Positions 2,592-63,945 of a DNA stretch of 64,000 nt are shown here, in pieces. Where the stretch lies: positions 19,408 to 83,407 of the forward strand of contig CAVSFZ010000012.1 in assembly GCA_963727235.1 (NCBI GenBank), in the 5' to 3' direction. This DNA comes from an uncultured Actinomycetes bacterium. GTDB lineage: Bacteria > Actinomycetota > Thermoleophilia > Gaiellales > JAICJC01. The notes under the pieces are model-generated. The model did not search any database and had not been told where the DNA came from. It saw only the letters and a program-made list of their open reading frames with translations. Position 1 is the stretch's first letter. Each line of letters opens with the position of its first letter. Both the position numbers and the translations under genes were made by a program.

Positions 2592-2624
2592 GTGAATAAT
2601 TGGTGCCTGGCACCAATTATTCAC
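2592..2624. repeat. 33-bp perfect palindrome, TT/AA subtype (putative REP-like element / bidirectional terminator)
   Basis: Sequence gtgaataattggtgcc-t-ggcaccaattattcac. The two 16-nt arms are exact reverse complements. It overlaps the upp stop codon (TGA, 2621-2623). Confidence 0.9.
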
Positions 2625-9923: not shown

Positions 9924-11621
9924 ATGTCGACTCCCCGCCGGCCATCCGACTATCCACCACCGGTTCAAATCAACGAGTTCGTGTGCGCACCCGAGGCCGC
10001 CGAGGACGAGCGCATCGATGTGGGTGTGCTGTTCGTCGGCGGCGGCCCGGCCGGCCTGGCAGGGGCGATCCGGCTGGGACAGCTGCTGGCGGCCGACCCC
10101 GCCACCGCCGAGCAGCTGGGCGAGGTGCCGGTGGCGGTGCTCGACAAGGGCCGGGTGATCGGCGCCCACCTGCTCTCGGGCGCTGTCGTCAATCCTTCGG
10201 CGCTGCGCGACCTCTTCCCGGACACACCGTTGGAGCAGCTGCCCAGCTTCGGGCCGGTGAAGAAGGAGTCGGTGTTCATGATGCGCGAGGGCTTTGCCGC
10301 GCACATCCCCACTCCTCCGCCGTTTCACAACAAGGGCAACTGGATCTTCTCGCTGTCCCAGCTGGGCCGGTACATGGGCGAGCAGGCCGAGGAGCTCGGC
10401 GCGATGCTGCTGCCCGAGACCGACGCCCAGAAGCTGCTGGTGTCTGACGGCGCGGTGCGCGGTGTGATGACCGGGGACAAGGGCCTCGACCGCGATCGGC
10501 AGCCGGGATCGAGCTACGAGCCCGGTGCCGAGATCCACGCTCGCGCCACCGTGCTTTCGGAAGGCACCCAGGGCCACCTGTCACTCGCGGCCGCGGAGCA
10601 CTTTGGCCTGCACCGCCGGAACCCTCAGATCTACTCGCTCGGGGTGAAAGAGGTCTGGCGGGTGGCCAAGCCGCTGGATCGAGTCGTGCACACGCTGGGA
10701 TGGCCGCTGCGGGCGTCGGCCAAGTCAGGTGAAAGTGGCGGGTCGTTCATCTATCCGATGGGCGAGGACATGGTCGTGATCGGATTCGTGGTCGGCCTCG
10801 ACTACCACGACGCGTCGCTGTCGCCGCACGACCTGCTGCAGCAGTTCAAGACGCACTCGCTGATCCGGCCGCTGCTGGAAGGCGGTGAGCGGATCGCGTG
10901 GGGCGCCAAGACCATTCCCGAGGGCGGCCTGCTGTCCGTGCCTGATCGGCTAAACGTGCCGGGCGCGGTGATCACCGGCGACTCGGCCGGATTCGTCAAC
11001 GTCCCCAAGCTGAAGGGCGTTCACTACGCCATGCGCTCGGGCATGCTGGCCGCCGACACGATCTACGAGCAGCTCAAGGCGGGAGCCGACCCAGCAGCTC
11101 CGGGGGCGCTCCAGGGATACGACCGGCGGGTGCGCCAGAGCCATATCTGGCGCGACCTGCACAAGGTGCGCAACATGCGCCAGGCGCTCAACCGCGGCCT
11201 GTTTCTGGGTGGCGGCCTGGCCAGCGCCATGGATCTCACCCGCGGCGCGTTCCCCGGCGGCAACTTCAGCGTCAAGCGCGACGCCGAAGCGGCACTCACG
11301 ATCGGGCCTCGCGACTATCCGGCGCCGGACGGCAAGCTCACCTTCGACAAGCTTTCGAGTGTGTTCCTGTCGGGCAACCGCACTCGCGACGACCAGCCCA
11401 ATCACGTCCGCATCGCCCATCGCGTGCCGCGCGAGGTGGGCGAGGCCTGGGTGGCGATGTGCCCGGCCCAGGTGTACGAGATCGCCGGTGACGCCGGGGA
11501 TGGGATCGTGGAGGTGGAGCTGACCCCATCCAACTGCGTTCAGTGCGGAGCGATCACCGCCAAGGGCGGCCGCCTCACCCCGCCCGAAGGCGGTAGCGGC
11601 CCCGAGTACTCCAACATGTGA
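9924..11621 (+). CDS. electron-transfer flavoprotein:quinone oxidoreductase (ETF-QO)
   Basis: 565 aa with an FAD motif [11 protein letters not shown] and a C-terminal ferredoxin-like segment (CPAQVYE...NCVQCGAI). It neighbours etfAB. Confidence 0.85.
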
Positions 11622-11687
11622 GGCTGGTCCGCGGCGGTTTTGGCGGCGTCCTGCGCCTCAGGGCGCCAGTCGTGATAGACGCTGGTG

Positions 11688-11720
11688 GTGAATAATTGGT
11701 GCCAGGCACCAATTATTCAC
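11688..11720. repeat. 33-bp perfect palindrome, TT/AA subtype
   Basis: Sequence gtgaataattggtgcc-a-ggcaccaattattcac. It is intergenic between the convergent ETF-QO and etfA genes. Confidence 0.9.
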
Positions 11721-11733
11721 GGTGAGGCTTGGG

Positions 11734-11764
11734 GTGAATAACGGTGCCTGGCACCGTTATTCAC
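11734..11764. repeat. 31-bp perfect palindrome, C/G subtype
   Basis: Sequence gtgaataacggtgcc-t-ggcaccgttattcac. It contains the etfA stop (TGA, 11761-11763). Confidence 0.9.
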
Positions 11765-18894: not shown

Positions 18895-20112
18895 GTGATG
18901 TCTCGGCAACGCGCAATCCTCCTGCTTGCGATCGGATCCCAGGCTGCTCTCTCGATGATCACCTTCGGGCTGCCTGCGATCGGAAGCGACATCGAGTCGC
19001 AGTACGGTGTTGGCACGGTCGGTTTTGGCGCGGTGTTCGCAGCCGTCGGAATTGGGTCTGGGCTGGCGCTGGTGCCGGCGGGGATGCTGGTCGACCGGTA
19101 CGGCGCCCGCCGGATCCTGCTCGCCGGCGGCACCATCACAGCCGCCGGCCTGATCGGAGCGGCGTTTGCCCCCAACGTGTACTGGTACGGCGCCATGCTG
19201 TTCGTGGCCGGAGTTGGCGGCGCCGGAGTGCCGGTGGCGGGGATGACATCGCTGCTGCGTGAGTTCGCGCCCGAGCAGCGAGGTATGGCACTCGGCTGGC
19301 GCCAGCTTGCAGTGCCGCTGGGCGGTGCGGTCGGATCGGTTGCTTTGCCCGCCCTGGTCACACTCGGCGGGCTTCGACTGGCGATGCTGGTGGCGGCCGC
19401 CACCGCCGGCGGGCTTGCATTCGCGTTCTCCGGGGTGGCCGGCGACGATCGCAGCGAGGTGCGCTCGCGCGGGCTGGGCGGGGTGCTCTCGATCCCGCAG
19501 ATGCGACAGCTTCTGACGGTCGGCTTCCTGTATGTGTGGGCGCTCGGCGGCGTGCTGGCGTACTACATCCCTGCCGCCGAGTCGGGCGGACTGTCGGCAA
19601 CCCAGGCGGCCATCGGGTTTACGGTGGTGAATATCACCGCGGCGCTGTCGCGGATCGTGTGGGGTCGGCTGGCCGACAAGAGCTCGGGCACCCGCCGTGT
19701 GCACGTGCTGCGGGCCACCGGGCTCGTGGCCGCGGCGGGAGCGGTGGTGATGCCGATCGCCCTGGCGACGGGCACGGTGGCGTCGCTGGCGGCCACGGTG
19801 GCGCTGGCATTCGGAGTGTTCGGATTCAACGGGGTGCTGTACCTCACGGCCGGCGAGATCGCCGGAGCTGACCGCGCCGGGCGGGCAGTTGGCCTGGCCT
19901 CGATGGTGGTGTTTGGATGGGGCTCGCTGTCGGCGCCCATCGCAGGCCTTGCGATCGAAGCGACCGGCTACGACGCCGTGTGGGTGATCGCAGCGGTGAC
20001 CGGACTCGCGGGCGCGCTGGTGGCCGGCTCGATGCTGCGCTCGACACAGCGGCCGGGGGGCCGCATACTCGGTGGATGGGACGGAGCGCCAACCACACCG
20101 CGCGAGCCTTGA
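18895..20112 (+). CDS. MFS transporter
   Basis: 405 aa with about 12 hydrophobic segments and an MFS loop motif (VDRYGARRILL). Confidence 0.8.
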   Translation: MMSRQRAILLLAIGSQAALSMITFGLPAIGSDIESQYGVGTVGFGAVFAAVGIGSGLALVPAGMLVDRYGARRILLAGGTITAAGLIGAAFAPNVYWYGAMLFVAGVGGAGVPVAGMTSLLREFAPEQRGMALGWRQLAVPLGGAVGSVALPALVTLGGLRLAMLVAAATAGGLAFAFSGVAGDDRSEVRSRGLGGVLSIPQMRQLLTVGFLYVWALGGVLAYYIPAAESGGLSATQAAIGFTVVNITAALSRIVWGRLADKSSGTRRVHVLRATGLVAAAGAVVMPIALATGTVASLAATVALAFGVFGFNGVLYLTAGEIAGADRAGRAVGLASMVVFGWGSLSAPIAGLAIEATGYDAVWVIAAVTGLAGALVAGSMLRSTQRPGGRILGGWDGAPTTPREP

Positions 20113-20114
20113 TC

Positions 20115-20441
20115 ATGGCCGGCGGCATGCTGGCGCTGGCGGTGGCGATCGCGATCGGAGTCGATGACACGGCGGTGCTTACCGTCGCGCTGTCGGGCGC
20201 GACCAGCGCTGCGCTGGGGTGGCGCATGAGCAGGCTGCGCCCGGGCGCTCTCCAGAATCTGTACGGGTGGGCGTGTTGCATCTTCGGCGCAACCACCGCA
20301 GGCCAGGGCTACCTCACGCTCGATCTGGGCGCCACCGGAGCGCCCAGGGTGGAAGCGATGCTGTGGATCGTCGCGGGGCTGATGGTGATCGGCGGAGCCA
20401 CCGCCACGATGCTGCTCAAGCCCGTCGCAGCTCGTGAATAA
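20115..20441 (+). CDS. small hypothetical membrane protein
   Basis: ATG 20115 lies 2 nt after the MFS stop (MAGGMLALAVAIAIGV...). There are about three hydrophobic segments. The stop TAA (20439-20441) lies inside the palindrome. Confidence 0.45.
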   Translation: MAGGMLALAVAIAIGVDDTAVLTVALSGATSAALGWRMSRLRPGALQNLYGWACCIFGATTAGQGYLTLDLGATGAPRVEAMLWIVAGLMVIGGATATMLLKPVAARE

Positions 20442-20466
20442 AAGGTGCCTGGCACCTTTTATTCAC
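20434..20466. repeat. 33-bp perfect palindrome, AA/TT subtype
   Basis: Sequence gtgaataaaaggtgcc-t-ggcaccttttattcac. It contains the stop codons of both convergent flanking CDSs. Confidence 0.9.
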
Positions 20467-20855
20467 AGTGGGCGGACGCAGTTGGTGCAGCCGTTGAGGG
20501 TCACCGGGGCGCCGCCCACCTGTGCCCACTTGCCGGAGGTGAGCGGCTGAGCGCCGATCGGCGCCAGGAACACCCGCTGGCGTCCTTGCACGTGGACGGT
20601 GAAGGTTCCGTCCGCGCCGGTCGTCACCTGTGCGATCGGTGACGGCGGATCGGCCATCACCGGTCCCGAAGTCGAAATCGCCCGGGTGTACACGCCGATG
20701 GTCGCACCGGCCACGGGGGTGTCCTTGGCGGGACTGCCCGAGGCGTGCTCGAGATAGACGCCGGTGACGGCATCGCCCTGGGCCGTGGTCGAGCTGTTCT
20801 GGCCACAACCGGCGGCCGCCAACACCACCGCGAGCACGAGCAGGATCAGCTTCAT
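20463..20855 (-). CDS. hypothetical lipoprotein
   Basis: Internal ATG 20855 gives MKLILLVLAVVLAAAGCGQNSS, a signal peptide plus lipobox Cys. The remainder looks beta-rich (GADGTFTVHV). The stop TGA (20463-20465) lies inside the palindrome. Confidence 0.55.
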   Translation of the reverse strand: MKLILLVLAVVLAAAGCGQNSSTTAQGDAVTGVYLEHASGSPAKDTPVAGATIGVYTRAISTSGPVMADPPSPIAQVTTGADGTFTVHVQGRQRVFLAPIGAQPLTSGKWAQVGGAPVTLNGCTNCVRPL

Positions 20856-20886
20856 ATCTCTAGGACGCGCGCCGAACCCCGTCGGT

Positions 20887-21732
20887 TCACACCGCTGGGT
20901 AATCGTAGAAGCCCTGGCCCGACTTTCGGCCCAGCCGACCGGCTTGCACGTAGCTGCGCAGCAGCGGGCAGGGGCGGTATTTGTCATCGCCGAGACCCTC
21001 GTGCAGCACCTCCATGATCGCCAGCACCGTGTCCAGGCCGATCAGGTCGGCCAACGTCAAAGGCCCCATCGGATGGTTCATTCCGAGCTTCATCACCGTG
21101 TCGATCGAGTCGCGATCGCCGACGCCCTCCATCAGGCAATAGACCGCCTCGTTGATCATCGGAACCAGGATCCGGTTGGAGATGAACCCCGGGTAGTCAT
21201 GGGCTTCGGCCACGGTCTTGCCCATCCGCTCGGCCGCCGAACGCACCGTCGCCGCGGTCTCGTCGCTCGTCTCCAAGCCACGGATCAGCTCGACCAGCGG
21301 CATCAACGGCACCGGGTTCATGAAGTGCATGCCGACGACCCGCTGAGGCCGCGAGGTCACGGAGGCCAGCTTGGTGATCGGAATCGAGCTGGTGTTGGAA
21401 GCCAGCACCGCTCCCTCGCCCAGCGCCTCATCGATCTGCTTGAAGATCTGCAGCTTGAGATCGACGCTCTCGGTGGCCGCCTCGATCGCCAGATCCGCGT
21501 TCACCGGCGCCGACGCCGATGCGATCCGCTCGACCGCGGCAGCCGCCACGTCACTCTCGACCTTGCCTTTCTCCACCAGCTTGGCCAGCGACTGTTGGAT
21601 GCCCGATCGAGCCCGCTCGAGCTGCACGTCGGATACGTCCACCAAGGTCACGTCGAAACCGGCGACGGCAGCCACCTGGGCGATCCCCGACCCCATCTGG
21701 CCGGCACCCACGACACAGATCCGCTGGGTCAC
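20887..21732 (-). CDS. hbd: 3-hydroxybutyryl-CoA dehydrogenase
   Basis: 281 aa with an NAD fold ([15 protein letters not shown]) and a HAD-family C-terminal domain. Confidence 0.9.
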
Positions 21733-22913
21733 GGAGCCGGAACCTCGAGCACGATCGCGTCGCCCTGAGCCGCCCCCGAGCAGATCGCGGCCAGCCCAAT
21801 CCCGCCTCCCCGGCGGCGCAGCTCGTAGATCATCGTGATCATTAGGCGCGCGCCGGAGGCACCCACCGGATGGCCCAGCGCGACCGCTCCGCCGTTGACG
21901 TTGACCTTGTCGGGGTCGACGTCGAGCAGCTTGATCGTGTTCAGCGCAACCGCGCTGAACGCCTCATTGACCTCGATCACGTCGACCTGGTCGAGCGTCA
22001 GGCCCGCCTTGTCCAGCGCCGACCGGGCCGCACCCGCCGGGGTGCGCACCAGGTAGGCGTAGTCGTCGGCCACGTGCCCGCTCGCCAGCACCACCGCCAG
22101 CGGGGCGTGCCCGTGCTCGGCCGCCCACCGCTCGTCTGCCAGCACCATCGCTGCGCCGCCGTCGTTCACGCTGGGGGCATTCCCCGCGGTGGTTGCACCG
22201 TCCTTGGAGAACACGGGCGGCAGCTTCGCCAGCTTCTCGGCCGAGGTGTCACGCCGAGGGCCCTCGTCGTGCTCGACCACCGTTTCGCCCTTGCGGCCCG
22301 GGACAGTCACCGAAACGATCTCCTCGGCCAGCTTGCCCGAGTCGATCGCCGCCACCGCCCGCTGGTGGCTGCGCAATGCCCACGCGTCCTGCGCCTCCCG
22401 GCCGATCCCGATCTCGGCGCTGACATCCGAGTTCTGAGCCGCCATGATCTTGCCGTCGAAGGTGCAGGTGAGCCCGTCGTAGGTCATCGAGTCGACCAGC
22501 ACGCCGTCGCCCATCGTGTAGCCAAACCTCGCTTTGGGCACCAGGTACGGGGCGTTGGACATGCTCTCCATGCCTCCCGCCAGCACGACGTTGTACTCCC
22601 CCGCACGGATGTAGATGTCCGCCATCGCGGCAGCGCGCATGCCGGAGGCGCACACCTTGTTGATCGTCTCCGAGCCGGTCGTCTTGGGCAGCCCGATGCC
22701 GGCCGACACCTGCCGGGACGGGATCTGACCGGCACCCGCCTGCAGCACCTCGCCCATCACGACGTAGTCGATCTGGTCGGGCGCGACGCCCGAACGCTCC
22801 AACGCGCCCGCTGCCGCATGCGTGCCCAGCTGCGGCCCGGACAAAGGTGCCAACCCGCCGCCGAGGCGGCCGAACGGGGTGCGGGCCGCACCGATGACGA
22901 CGGTTCGTGCCAT
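21729..22913 (-). CDS. acetyl-CoA C-acetyltransferase (thiolase II)
   Basis: Starts at ATG 22913 ([15 protein letters not shown]). The active-site regions are [18 protein letters not shown] and [12 protein letters not shown]. Confidence 0.9.
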
Positions 22914-31230: not shown

Positions 31231-31263
31231 GTGAATAAAAGGTGCCAGGCACCTTTTATTCAC
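31231..31263. repeat. 33-bp perfect palindrome, AA/TT subtype
   Basis: Sequence gtgaataaaaggtgcc-a-ggcaccttttattcac. It begins 2 nt after the kinase stop (TGA 31227-31229) and ends 27 nt upstream of the MCC-beta start. Confidence 0.9.
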
Positions 31264-33650: not shown

Positions 33651-35359
33651 TCGCCAATCGCGGCGAGGTCGCCGTGCGCGTGATCCGGGCCTGCCGCGAG
33701 CTGGGGATCGAAGCCGTCGCAGTCCACCTCCCCGGAGAGGCCGGCGACCTGCACGTGCAGTTGGCTGATGCCGGTGCGGAGATTCCCTCGTTCCTCGACC
33801 CCGACGCGATTCTGGGCGCCGCGGAGGCACTCGCCGCAGACGCCATCCACCCGGGGTACGGCTATCTGGCCGAGAGCCCCGACTTCGCCGAGCGCGTCGC
33901 CGGTGCCCGCATCGCGTGGGTCGGGCCGCCGGCGGCGGCGATGCGCGCGAGTGGAGACAAGCTGGCCGCGCGACGGCTGGCCGAAGCCGCGGGAGTGCCG
34001 GTTGTCCCCGGGTATGCGGGCATCGATCTGACCGACGAAACCCTCGCGGCCGAGGCCGAACGAGTCGGATTCCCGCTGCTGGTCAAAGCCGCCGGCGGCG
34101 GAGGGGGACGCGGGATCCGCCGGGTCGCGGGGGCCGCCGACCTGCCCGCGGCGCTGGAGGCGGCCCGGCGCGAGGCCAAGGCGGGCTTCGACGACGAGCG
34201 GGTGTACCTGGAGCGGGAGCTCGACGCCGCCCGCCACGTGGAGATCCAGCTGCTGGCCGACCGCCACGGCAACGTGATCCACCTGGGCGAGCGCGACTGC
34301 TCGGCGCAGCGGCGCCACCAGAAGATCGTGGAGGAGGCTCCCTCCCCCGCCGTCGACGGCGAGTTGCGAGCGGCCCTCGGCGACGCCGCCGTGGCGATCG
34401 CGCGCGCGGCCGGCTACGAGAGCGCCGGCACCGCCGAGTTCCTGCTCTTGCCCGACGACAGCTGGTACTTCCTGGAACTGAACGCCCGGTTGCAGGTGGA
34501 GCATCCCGTGTCGGAGCTGGTGACCGGCATCGACCTGGTACGAGCCCAGCTCGAGATCGCCCGCGGTGAGCGCCTGGAGTGGAGCCAGGCCGACATCGCG
34601 CCCACCGGCCACTCGATCGAATGCCGGCTGTACGCGGAGGATCCGGCGGCCGGGTTCGTGCCCTCACCCGGCAGGCTGGTGCGGTTCGAGATCCCGCCGT
34701 GGCCGGGTGTGCGCATCGACACCGGCGTGCGGGTGGGCGATCACGTCGGCATCCACCACGATCCGTTGCTCGCCAAGGTGATCGCCCACGCCGAAGATCG
34801 CGACGCCTGTATCGAGCGCATGGCCGCGGTGCTGGCCGAGACGGTCGTGCTCGGGGTCTCCACCAACCTGGGGTTCCTGCGCTGGCTGCTGATCCGGCCC
34901 GAGTTCATGAGCGGCGATGTCGACACCGGCTTCGTCGATCGACGCTGGAGCCCAGATCTGGTACCCGAGCTGCCCGCCGAGGTCGCCCGCTCGGCCCGGG
35001 CGGCGATGCTGCCGGCCGGACCGTGGCGCGACTACGGCACGGCTGGCACCACCGCGGTGACGGCGGCCGGCGGGTTCGTGCAGCACGATGGGTGGCAGTA
35101 CACACTCGAAGACGACGACGCTCCCTCAGGTTCGTCCGGCGTGGCCGGGTCGCTGCAGGCGCCGATGCCCGGCTCGGTGCTGCGTGTCTCGGTCGCCGTC
35201 GGTGACCCCGTCACCGAAGGGCAGGAGCTGGTCGTGATCGAGGCCATGAAGATGGAGGTGGCCGTGGCCGCTCCCCGCGACGGCGTCGTGCAGGCGGTCA
35301 ACACTGCCGTCGGAGCCCAGGTGACCCGTGCCCAGACTCTTGTCGAGCTGGGTGAATAA
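33623..35359 (+). CDS. methylcrotonyl-CoA carboxylase alpha (biotin carboxylase + BCCP) subunit, liuD-like
   Basis: Starts at ATG 33623 ([23 protein letters not shown]). It has an ATP-grasp region and the biotinylation motif IEAMKMEV near the C-terminus. The stop TAA (35357-35359) lies inside the palindrome. Confidence 0.85.
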   Translation: MGSAIDRVLIANRGEVAVRVIRACRELGIEAVAVHLPGEAGDLHVQLADAGAEIPSFLDPDAILGAAEALAADAIHPGYGYLAESPDFAERVAGARIAWVGPPAAAMRASGDKLAARRLAEAAGVPVVPGYAGIDLTDETLAAEAERVGFPLLVKAAGGGGGRGIRRVAGAADLPAALEAARREAKAGFDDERVYLERELDAARHVEIQLLADRHGNVIHLGERDCSAQRRHQKIVEEAPSPAVDGELRAALGDAAVAIARAAGYESAGTAEFLLLPDDSWYFLELNARLQVEHPVSELVTGIDLVRAQLEIARGERLEWSQADIAPTGHSIECRLYAEDPAAGFVPSPGRLVRFEIPPWPGVRIDTGVRVGDHVGIHHDPLLAKVIAHAEDRDACIERMAAVLAETVVLGVSTNLGFLRWLLIRPEFMSGDVDTGFVDRRWSPDLVPELPAEVARSARAAMLPAGPWRDYGTAGTTAVTAAGGFVQHDGWQYTLEDDDAPSGSSGVAGSLQAPMPGSVLRVSVAVGDPVTEGQELVVIEAMKMEVAVAAPRDGVVQAVNTAVGAQVTRAQTLVELGE

Positions 35360-35382
35360 CGGTGCCTGGCACCGTTATTCAC
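35352..35382. repeat. 31-bp perfect palindrome, C/G subtype
   Basis: Sequence gtgaataacggtgcc-t-ggcaccgttattcac. It contains the MCC-alpha stop and the most likely HMG-CoA lyase GTG start (35362). Confidence 0.9.
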
Positions 35383-40812: not shown

Positions 40813-41342
40813 GCCACGTCGACTGGGCGATCGCAGGCGGGGTGGCGCTGGCGATCGCGATCCTGCTGGGCACGATCGTGAACCGGATGGTGCCGCCGGG
40901 GAGCCCTCGGCGGACGGTCGAGGACAGCGCGCTTCTGCTTGGCTGCGCCGCACCCGGGCTGGCCGTGTTCGGCTACTACCTGCATCACCGGCTGCTGGCC
41001 GGCGTCGCCATCATCGCGGTCGCCTACGGCGGGTTTTTCCTGATCCGGATGCGCCAGCTGCGCCGCGCCAATCGCGATGGGGTGCGGCGACTGCTGGGGC
41101 TCGATCGCGATGCGACCTTCGGCGAGGTGATGTCACAGGTGGAGAAGATCGAGCCGCACCCGCTGACCACCACCAGCCGGCTCGTGCTCGCGCTGGCCGC
41201 GGCCATGGTGGTGATCGTGGGCTACGCCCTCGACCGCTTCGACACCGCGCTGATCGGCCTGGCGATCGGAGTGGCCGAGAGCACCGCCCGCCCCGCCTTC
41301 CGCCGCGCCCTGGCAACCAAGGTCCGCGACATCGGCCACTGA
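40809..41342 (+). CDS. hypothetical membrane protein
   Basis: 177 aa with about four hydrophobic segments. It has a 4-nt overlap with the upstream ACAD gene. The stop TGA (41340-41342) lies in the palindrome arm. Confidence 0.5.
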   Translation: MSHVDWAIAGGVALAIAILLGTIVNRMVPPGSPRRTVEDSALLLGCAAPGLAVFGYYLHHRLLAGVAIIAVAYGGFFLIRMRQLRRANRDGVRRLLGLDRDATFGEVMSQVEKIEPHPLTTTSRLVLALAAAMVVIVGYALDRFDTALIGLAIGVAESTARPAFRRALATKVRDIGH

Positions 41343-41381
41343 ATAAAAGGTGCCAGGCACCTTTTATTCACCGTTATTCAC
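41339..41381. repeat. 33-bp palindrome (AA/TT subtype, first base G->C) plus an abutting 13-nt right-arm fragment of the C/G subtype
   Basis: Sequence ctgaataaaaggtgcc-a-ggcaccttttattcac (41339-41371). The fragment caccgttattcac (41369-41381) overlaps the last three bases of the full copy. Confidence 0.85.
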
Positions 41382-63372: not shown

Positions 63373-63761
63373 TTCCGGCGGACGTGCGCGACGCAATCGT
63401 CGCCCATGCCCGCGCCGGACTCCCGAACGAGGCGTGCGGGATCCTGGCCGGAGTGGATGGGCGCGTGGAGCGCTTCTTCCCGGCTGAGTCGGACGAGCCC
63501 AGCCCCTATTACTACCGGATCGAGTCGCGCGACCAGATCCGGATCATGAACGAGATCGACGACGCCGGACTGGATCTGATCGGGATCTATCACTCGCACG
63601 TCTCTTCGCCGGCGTATCCCAGCCGCACCGATGCCGAACAGGCATTCTGGCCCGACGCGGTGTATGTGATTGTCTCCCTGGCGGGCGCCGAGGCCGACGT
63701 CCGGGGCTATCGAATCGCCGACATGCTCGCCACCGAAGAGCCGCTCGAGATCAGTGAATAA
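63366..63761 (+). CDS. mec: JAMM/MPN+ metalloprotease (Mec-like)
   Basis: 131 aa with NEACG and the JAMM motif YHSHVSSPAYPSRTD. It overlaps cysM by 7 nt. The stop TAA (63759-63761) lies in the palindrome arm. Confidence 0.8.
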   Translation: MVIPADVRDAIVAHARAGLPNEACGILAGVDGRVERFFPAESDEPSPYYYRIESRDQIRIMNEIDDAGLDLIGIYHSHVSSPAYPSRTDAEQAFWPDAVYVIVSLAGAEADVRGYRIADMLATEEPLEISE

Positions 63762-63786
63762 TTGGTGCCAGGCACCAATTATTCAT
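63754..63786. repeat. 33-bp palindrome, TT/AA subtype (last base C->T)
   Basis: Sequence gtgaataattggtgcc-a-ggcaccaattattcat. It is the first copy of a terminal cluster. Confidence 0.9.
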
Positions 63787-63813
63787 CTGGACACCTCAGG
63801 TTATGCACCGCAG

Positions 63814-63846
63814 GTGAATAACCAGTGCCTGGCAGTTTTTATGCAC
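63814..63846. repeat. degenerate 33-bp copy of the palindrome
   Basis: Sequence gtgaataaccagtgcc-t-ggcagtttttatgcac. It keeps the arm ends and the CCTGG centre, but the arms no longer pair fully. Confidence 0.7.
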
Positions 63847-63851
63847 CGCAG

Positions 63852-63874
63852 GTGAATAAAAAGTTGCCTGGCAC
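63852..63874. repeat. truncated copy (left arm plus centre only)
   Basis: Sequence gtgaataaaaagttgcc-t-ggcac. The right arm is replaced by unrelated sequence. Confidence 0.6.
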
Positions 63875-63914
63875 TCTCACGCCCAGGCACGACAAACAGC
63901 CTGATGGGTAGCGG

Positions 63915-63945
63915 GTGAATAACGGTGCCTGGCACCGTTATTCAT
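63915..63945. repeat. 31-bp palindrome, C/G subtype (last base C->T)
   Basis: Sequence gtgaataacggtgcc-t-ggcaccgttattcat. Confidence 0.9.

Follow-up and report, generated by a model that had tools for sequence, protein, structure and literature searches.

Within the 64,000-nt stretch of Gaiellales DNA analysed here (the window), two operons run towards each other and their last genes both stop inside one perfect palindrome. The question raised by this locus is whether the palindrome acts as a bidirectional terminator and sets the C-termini of both proteins, as the sequence-only reading had proposed, and whether it is a device made for its site or came there as something else. The palindrome is composed of perfect 16-nt arms on either side of a single central base (16+1+16); its sequence is listed with the coordinates of all features in Table 1. 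Both convergent stop codons are indeed element sequence inside the one hairpin, and the claim that the whole 21-nt stretch between them (20442-20462) is palindrome is confirmed. RNA folding of the palindrome gives -28.7 kcal/mol on the plus strand and -26.1 kcal/mol on the minus strand (z = -6.8 and -6.5), and the GC core alone, with 5 pairs and a 3-nt loop, gives -6.8 kcal/mol. It can be observed on both strands that a GGUGC-CUG/CAG-GCACC stem is flanked by a 5' A-tract and a 3' UUUUAUU, so that the same DNA encodes a hairpin followed by a U-run on both transcripts. The copy at 20434 is a singleton without a doublet partner. Rfam returned chance miRNA-like matches or none (E-value scan of 19000-22000; gathering scan of the whole window), and a literature search with the core sequence matched only unrelated mammalian papers.

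The reality of the two small coding sequences, on which the earlier interpretation depended, is confirmed by conserved homologues and by independent codon-model gene calls, which recover both the membrane protein gene and the lipoprotein gene. On the plus strand, an MFS transporter gene is followed by the membrane protein gene, whose likely start is the ATG at 20115, 2 nt past the TGA of the transporter gene. On the minus strand, genes for a thiolase and a 3-hydroxybutyryl-CoA dehydrogenase precede the lipoprotein gene, the product of which begins MKLILLVLAVVLAAAGC... Neither small protein contains a Pfam domain. Homologues of the lipoprotein are present in 49 of 61 genomes of the family and align through the last residue, and the membrane protein shares 92% identity with its counterpart in G004, 71% in G005 and 35% in another genus. 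In G006, the membrane protein orthologue (G006:C1, about 1611700-1612100) matches in three different frames, with a stop in its interior, which indicates a pseudogene or else an error of the assembly.

Table 1. Features at the junction, REP copies in the window, transposase-like genes, and the occupancy of compared sites in relatives (window coordinates unless a contig or genome is named).
Feature	Position or genome	Strand	Remarks
Small membrane protein gene, 108 aa	20115..20441	+	last gene of MFS-transporter operon; conserved in G004, G001, G005
Putative lipoprotein gene, 130 aa	20463..20855	-	last gene of thiolase / 3-hydroxybutyryl-CoA dehydrogenase operon; signal peptide + Cys
REP element, AAAA/TTTT variant	20434..20466	.	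plus strand GTGAATAAAAGGTGCC-T-GGCACCTTTTATTCAC; perfect 16-nt arms; 1 of 329 exact genome cores
TAA stop of plus-strand gene	20439..20441	+	within left arm
TGA stop of lipoprotein gene	20463..20465	-	first three bases of minus-strand REP arm TGAATAA; plus strand reads TCA
REP copy, AATT variant	2593..2623	.	window
REP doublet	11689..11763	.	AATT 11689-11719, 15-nt spacer, AAC 11735-11763
REP copy, AAAA variant	31232..31262	.	native TGA 2 nt upstream
REP copy, AAC variant	35353..35381	.	window
REP copy, AAAA variant	41340..41370	.	its TGA ends upstream plus-strand gene; half AAC arm after
REP cluster	63755..63944	.	AATT 63755-63785, degenerate copies, then AAC 63916-63944
RAYT-like gene, 230 aa	C29:2292-2981	-	PF01797; outside window
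RAYT-like gene, 229 aa	C18:6537-7226	+	PF01797; outside window
Flanking palindrome of RAYT homologue	G002		AATT variant
Flanking palindrome of RAYT homologue	G004		AAC variant, three copies
Flanking palindrome of RAYT homologue	G005		AAAT variant
Flanking palindrome of RAYT homologue	G003		TGAATAAAAGGCGACTGACCCC...
Flanking palindrome of RAYT homologue	G007		TGAATAGACGGGGTCAGACCCC...
Flanking palindrome of RAYT homologue	G020, G018, G035		other cores
20434 site	G000		AAAA variant
20434 site	G001		AAAA variant
20434 site	G004		AAC variant
20434 site	G005		no element; TAG and CTA stops 2 nt apart
20434 site	G006		no element; TAG and TCA stops 6 nt apart

The palindrome is not confined to the junction. 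It recurs in the window at 31232 and 41340, with shorter-armed relatives at 11740, 35358 and 63921, and three matches to the 27-mer core pattern are found in the window against 0.00 expected from window shuffles. Across the assembly from which the window derives (G000, a Gaiellales MAG of 3.88 Mb in 30 contigs, 68% GC and 93% complete), the core GGTGCC-N-GGCACC is present in 329 copies, where about 2 are expected from base composition; a reversed control pattern has 0 matches. The family consensus can be written as G-TGAATAA-[AA/TT/AT/C]-GGTGCC-W-GGCACC-[matching]-TTATTCA-C. Symmetric linkers are AA in 101 copies, TT in 69, AT in 21 and C in 63, the last (AAC) being one base shorter per arm, and in the AAAA, AATT, AAAT and AAC variants alike a linker change in one arm is almost always compensated in the other. 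Conservation ends at the G and C bordering the arms, and the element is symmetric except for its centre base; flank logos oriented by that base revealed no asymmetric tag, only a symmetric G at -1 and C at +1. Across the genus, the six remaining genomes contain 7-340 copies of the core, and the range for the other genera of the family is 3-58. Close pairs are formed 32 times genome-wide, 26 of them with a spacer of 12-17 nt, and are mostly AATT + AAC heterodoublets, whose semi-conserved spacer of 15-17 nt gives a BIME/REPIN-like arrangement. With 33 nt, hairpin-forming ability and perfect 16-nt arms, the element at 20434 falls within the 20-40 nt typical of a REP.

A search of the assembly with Pfam Y1_Tnp (PF01797) yielded two genes, each single-copy with no further copy in the genome, whose products are 58% identical. 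Both score above the Pfam cut-off, and the top NCBIfam match of both is NF047646, "REP-associated tyrosine transposase"; the alignment spans positions 3-146 of the 146-position profile, with scores of 73.1 and 61 bits, and neither protein reached the equivalog cut-off of that family (80 bits). When a profile of 14 Gaiellales homologues was compared with PDB, E. coli TnpA-REP (4ER8) ranked first with E = 7e-8, the HUH and YIxxNP motifs being aligned, and ISDra2 TnpA was far weaker in the same search (E = 0.02). A single-sequence PDB search with the RAYT-like protein retrieved an HTH protein only. The HUH histidines H60 and H62, Y119 of RYIALNP, N123 and P124 are invariant in the 14 homologues, most of which also carry a C-terminal HTH of ~35 aa resembling sigma-70 region 4 or Xre. 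Homologues were detected in 24 of 121 sampled genomes of the phylum.

The link between these genes and the repeats is seen in their flanks. The C29 gene is bracketed by AAAA-type palindromes at distances of 1 nt and 75 nt, and the C18 gene by AATT-type palindromes on both sides. Homologues in relatives are likewise flanked by palindromes, and where other cores are present the TGAATA arms are the same. Wherever both flanks are occupied (both G000 genes, and those of G002, G004, G003 and G007), a centre-A copy stands on the 5' side and a centre-T copy on the 3' side, which means that the flanking copies are inverted. Inverted flanking REPs are the defining arrangement of REP/RAYT systems (PMC2817692). 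For the AAC variant, with its 63 copies, no RAYT was found in the 93%-complete G000 assembly; G004 possesses a homologue flanked by AAC copies, and the heterodoublets may explain the absence of an AAC-specific RAYT from G000. One of the two G005 homologues (C6:115149-115793) contains two in-frame TGA codons, and is therefore probably a decaying copy; an AAAT-type REP adjoins its 3' end.

Taken together, the palindrome at 20434 is very probably a REP copy belonging to a REP/RAYT system of the Gaiellales (Actinomycetota), an assignment made from sequence comparison. The system was compared with those of E. coli, Pseudomonas and Stenotrophomonas (Nunvar 2010, PMC2817692; Bertels & Rainey 2011, PMC3116915; Di Nocera 2013, PMC3733652; structure 4ER8). 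In common with them, it has hairpin-forming repeats of ~30 nt in hundreds of copies, found for the most part where genes converge or stand in tandem, single-copy Y1/HUH transposase-like genes flanked by inverted REPs, a distinct REP variant for each RAYT paralogue, and doublets of two REP subtypes in the manner of BIMEs or REPINs. It differs in that the Gaiellales REP lacks the unpaired GTAG or CGTC tag, in that the palindrome is perfect and has AT-rich outer arms against a genomic GC content of 68%, and in that the RAYT-like protein has 230 aa with an added C-terminal HTH, compared with 165 aa for E. coli TnpA-REP. A further difference is that the stop of the REP itself serves half of the adjacent gene ends. 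The published REP/RAYT surveys consulted list Proteobacteria, Cyanobacteria, Chloroflexi, PVC, Chlorobi, Bacteroidetes, Spirochaetes and Thermotogae, with Actinobacteria absent (PMC2817692, PMC3733652, PMC5581495); the 8 phyla of PMC3733652 do not include Actinomycetota, and the main texts of PMC2817692 and PMC5581495 make no mention of Actinobacteria. The Gaiellales family would extend REP/RAYT systems to Actinomycetota in an atypical form, the REP being without a tag and the RAYT bearing an additional HTH. Mobilisation of the REPs by their cognate RAYT-like proteins is suggested indirectly, by presence or absence at orthologous sites and by the copy number of 7-340 within the genus.

Comparison of orthologous sites gives a picture of how the junction was probably occupied. 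The most parsimonious account is that the element was gained in the ancestor of G000, G001 and G004; its loss in G005 and G006 is a possible alternative. At 20435 and 31232, the AAAA copies of G000 correspond to AAC copies in G004, with mirrored changes in both arms and flanks that are 86-92% identical, which suggests that point mutation after a single insertion is unlikely and that replacement, conversion or repeated insertion took place. In G003, of the same genus, only 7 GGTGCC-W-GGCACC cores are present, and the places on G003:C2 orthologous to window positions 11700, 31232, 41340 and 63755 are held by inverted doublets of other REP families. These doublets keep the TGAATA...TATTCA outer arms around cores GGGGTCAGTCGCC and GTGTCAGGCAG, and it is the first type that borders the G003 RAYT homologue. 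Corresponding gene ends thus hold different REP families in G000 and G003, a pattern that points to repeated insertion or replacement at sites already occupied. In the comparison of filled and empty sites, the copy at 2593 is compatible with an insertion point immediately 3' of a native TGA, and the copy at 31232 sits 2 nt past one. At 20435 both native stops are gone; since the flanks in the compared species are only 76-96% identical, clean insertion junctions are not visible.

Orthologues also allow the proposal of element-defined C-termini to be judged, and it holds only in part. Both stop codons are element sequence. The lipoprotein, however, ends in ...C-x-x-P-[L/M]* across the family and in all five compared genomes, with or without a REP; because it ends at the same residue in palindrome-free relatives, only its stop codon is derived from the element. 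For the membrane protein, the last codons are CGT GAA TAA, to which the REP contributes GT GAA TAA. REP-bearing genomes show the tails ...KPVAARE* (G000), ...KPAVAGE* (G004) and ...KPRRRGE* (G001), compared with ...KPRPAR* in the REP-free G005, so the change amounts to one additional terminal Glu, preceded by a codon of which two bases are REP-derived, and nothing more.

The genome-wide distribution places this junction in the context of the family. Genes were called with a simple codon model (3685 genes, 88.7% coding). REPs are present in 169 of 578 convergent intergenic regions (29%), 133 of 2504 tandem regions (5%) and 19 of 573 divergent regions (3%), and are thus six to nine times commoner between convergent genes than between tandem or divergent ones. 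At least one gene end adjoins 302 of the 321 full elements (94%). Among 470 gene ends next to a REP, 134 end at the TGA of the REP and 101 at its TAA, 235 together; only 4 read through in the third frame, and the others stop upstream. Forty-two REPs, the copy at 20434 included, hold both convergent stops. REP-derived codons make up 101 of the 438 TAA stops of the genome (23%). In 76 of these 101 genes the ending is NGT-GAA-TAA, which produces -[G/R/S/C]-E tails (A-R-E at 20441), and G precedes the TGA in 87% of REP-TGA genes against 36% genome-wide. Convergent pairs without a REP are separated by a median of 6 nt between stops (57% by 10 nt or less), compared with 32 nt for pairs with a REP. 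In tandem contexts, the orientation of the centre base relative to gene direction shows a weak bias, 77 against 54. For GTAG REPs, it is already on record that the termini can provide stop codons (PMC3733652).

On this basis, a course of events at 20434 can be proposed. In an ancestor shared by G000, G001 and G004, a REP copy would have inserted into the tiny gap that separated the converging operons. As the median REP-free convergent gap is 6 nt, a 33-nt insert must overlap gene ends, and it therefore survives only where its own stops close the frames. The insert was presumably tolerated by virtue of the TGA and TAA in each arm, which close two of three frames on either strand, and it would have replaced both native stops, leaving the lipoprotein unchanged and the membrane protein longer by one Glu. 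Once transcribed, the hairpin with its GC core and UUUUAUU on both strands may end both mRNAs, stabilise them, or both, most likely as a secondary effect. The double-stop hairpin is accordingly what results when a 33-nt repeat lands in a gap of 2-6 nt. Being one of about 330 REP copies, the element is an ordinary family member and not a purpose-built terminator.

The strongest competing explanation is that of a dedicated bidirectional intrinsic terminator: the family would have been selected to end transcription both ways, as has been proposed for the mycobacterial TRIT, and stops in the stem would serve to compact gene ends. We consider this possible, though rather doubtful. The copy at 20434 has what such a terminator requires on both strands, the GGUGC/GCACC stem with its A-tract and UUUUAUU, and in this it resembles canonical bidirectional intrinsic terminators. 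REPs are also enriched between convergent genes, as described above, and of 232 hairpin-plus-T-tract sites located -5 to +80 nt from gene ends, 221 (95%) fall in REPs. TRIT ("Tuberculosis Rho-independent terminator"; Gardner et al. 2011, PMC3152330) is likewise palindromic, with 147 bidirectional copies in Mycobacterium; its position is narrow and overlaps the stop codon (about -8), and most of the stable gene-end structures there are TRIT. Several points weigh against selection for termination. The U-tract is absent from the AATT (69) and AAC (63) copies, ~40-45% of the family, and their distribution is unchanged; 19 REP copies lie between divergent gene pairs; and 435 convergent pairs do without a REP and leave hardly any spacer, so that the hairpin is dispensable. 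Presence or absence of the REP varies between close species at the same site, and the RAYT association indicates spread by a transposase-like enzyme.

The structure at 20434 itself also departs from canonical bidirectional terminators. Its core has only 5 pairs and a 3-nt loop, the stops lie inside the extended stem, the element is dispersed instead of locus-specific, and its sister variants lack the U-tract. A generic terminator scan did not flag the palindrome at 20434, probably because such a scan extends the stem through the A/U tracts. Since the stops occupy stem positions 6-8, a terminating ribosome would be expected to cover the hairpin, in which case termination would need transcription that is uncoupled from translation. 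Liang, Rudd & Deutscher (2015) reportedly found that in E. coli a REP within 15 nt of the stop lowers protein output. A two-way terminator role is plausible, judged by the sequence, for the AAAA/UUUU copy at 20434 as an individual; reading this palindrome as a dedicated terminator, however, overlooks a REP family of ~330 copies with cognate RAYT-like genes.

A second alternative, which we regard as unlikely, places the function in the DNA duplex and not in an RNA or ssDNA hairpin: the palindrome would be bound in double-stranded form by a protein dimer, for which a nucleoid-associated protein, a regulator and the HTH domain of the RAYT-like protein are candidates. Perfect dyad symmetry, the retention of the outer arms TGAATA...TATTCA across genera while the cores vary, and the C-terminal sigma-70-region-4-like HTH of the RAYT-like proteins are consistent with such a site. 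In the AAC variant, however, the arms are one base shorter, which brings the outer half-sites 2 bp nearer, and the changes are strictly complementary, which suits a hairpin more than a dimer site whose spacing is fixed. Moreover, 94% of copies are at gene 3' ends and not at promoters, and in G003 the same arms surround non-palindromic cores, forming stem-loops with 9-nt loops. The last alternative, a palindrome that arose by chance or evolved locally at the convergent junction outside any repeat family, can practically be dismissed in view of the shuffle expectation, the 329 genome cores and the empty reversed control.

With the REP/RAYT assignment as the preferred reading, the result for the locus is deflationary, the double-stop hairpin at 20434 being one of 42, and the interest shifts to the family. 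By bringing their own stops, REP arms rewrite gene ends, as seen in the 235 REP-derived stop codons, and MAG annotation is affected, since in 101 genes a repeat supplied the stop and the C-terminal -[GRSC]-E tail. A broader proposal, which we put forward tentatively and consider less likely than not, is that the REP/RAYT system of the Gaiellales is untagged and perfectly symmetric, and that its Y1 transposase, domesticated and equipped with an HTH, spreads "gene-end cassettes" that serve as the main terminators of the genome. If that were true, each cassette would close two frames on both strands with its stop codons and add a two-way intrinsic terminator, and mobile palindromes would be the chief source of terminators in a genome otherwise almost without them, given the share of hairpin-plus-T-tract sites that lie in REPs. 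A possible parallel exists with the unexplained mycobacterial TRIT motif, which is also an actinobacterial palindromic motif overlapping stop codons and dominates the hairpins at gene ends as the REPs do here. Judged by its published description, TRIT differs in being reported as restricted to Mycobacterium, with no associated transposase reported (PMC3152330).

A second repeat was observed near some of the REPs. It is ~150 nt long and present in ~8 genome copies (window 11617-11672, C3:21942, C15:78344, C23:61264 and others), and it had no Rfam match. It begins right at the TGA of a gene (TGAGGCTGGTCCGCGGCGGTTCTGGCGGCGTCC...GGTGCTCAACGTGGCTTTGCCACGCCTCCGCTCC...CCTGCGCCTCAGGGCGCC), and in nearly every copy its end lies 5-30 nt ahead of a REP, usually of the AATT type. 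The copy in the window is truncated, and full copies are located at the orthologous sites in G004 and G005. The repeat may represent a MITE or else encode a small RNA to which the REP lends a 3' hairpin.
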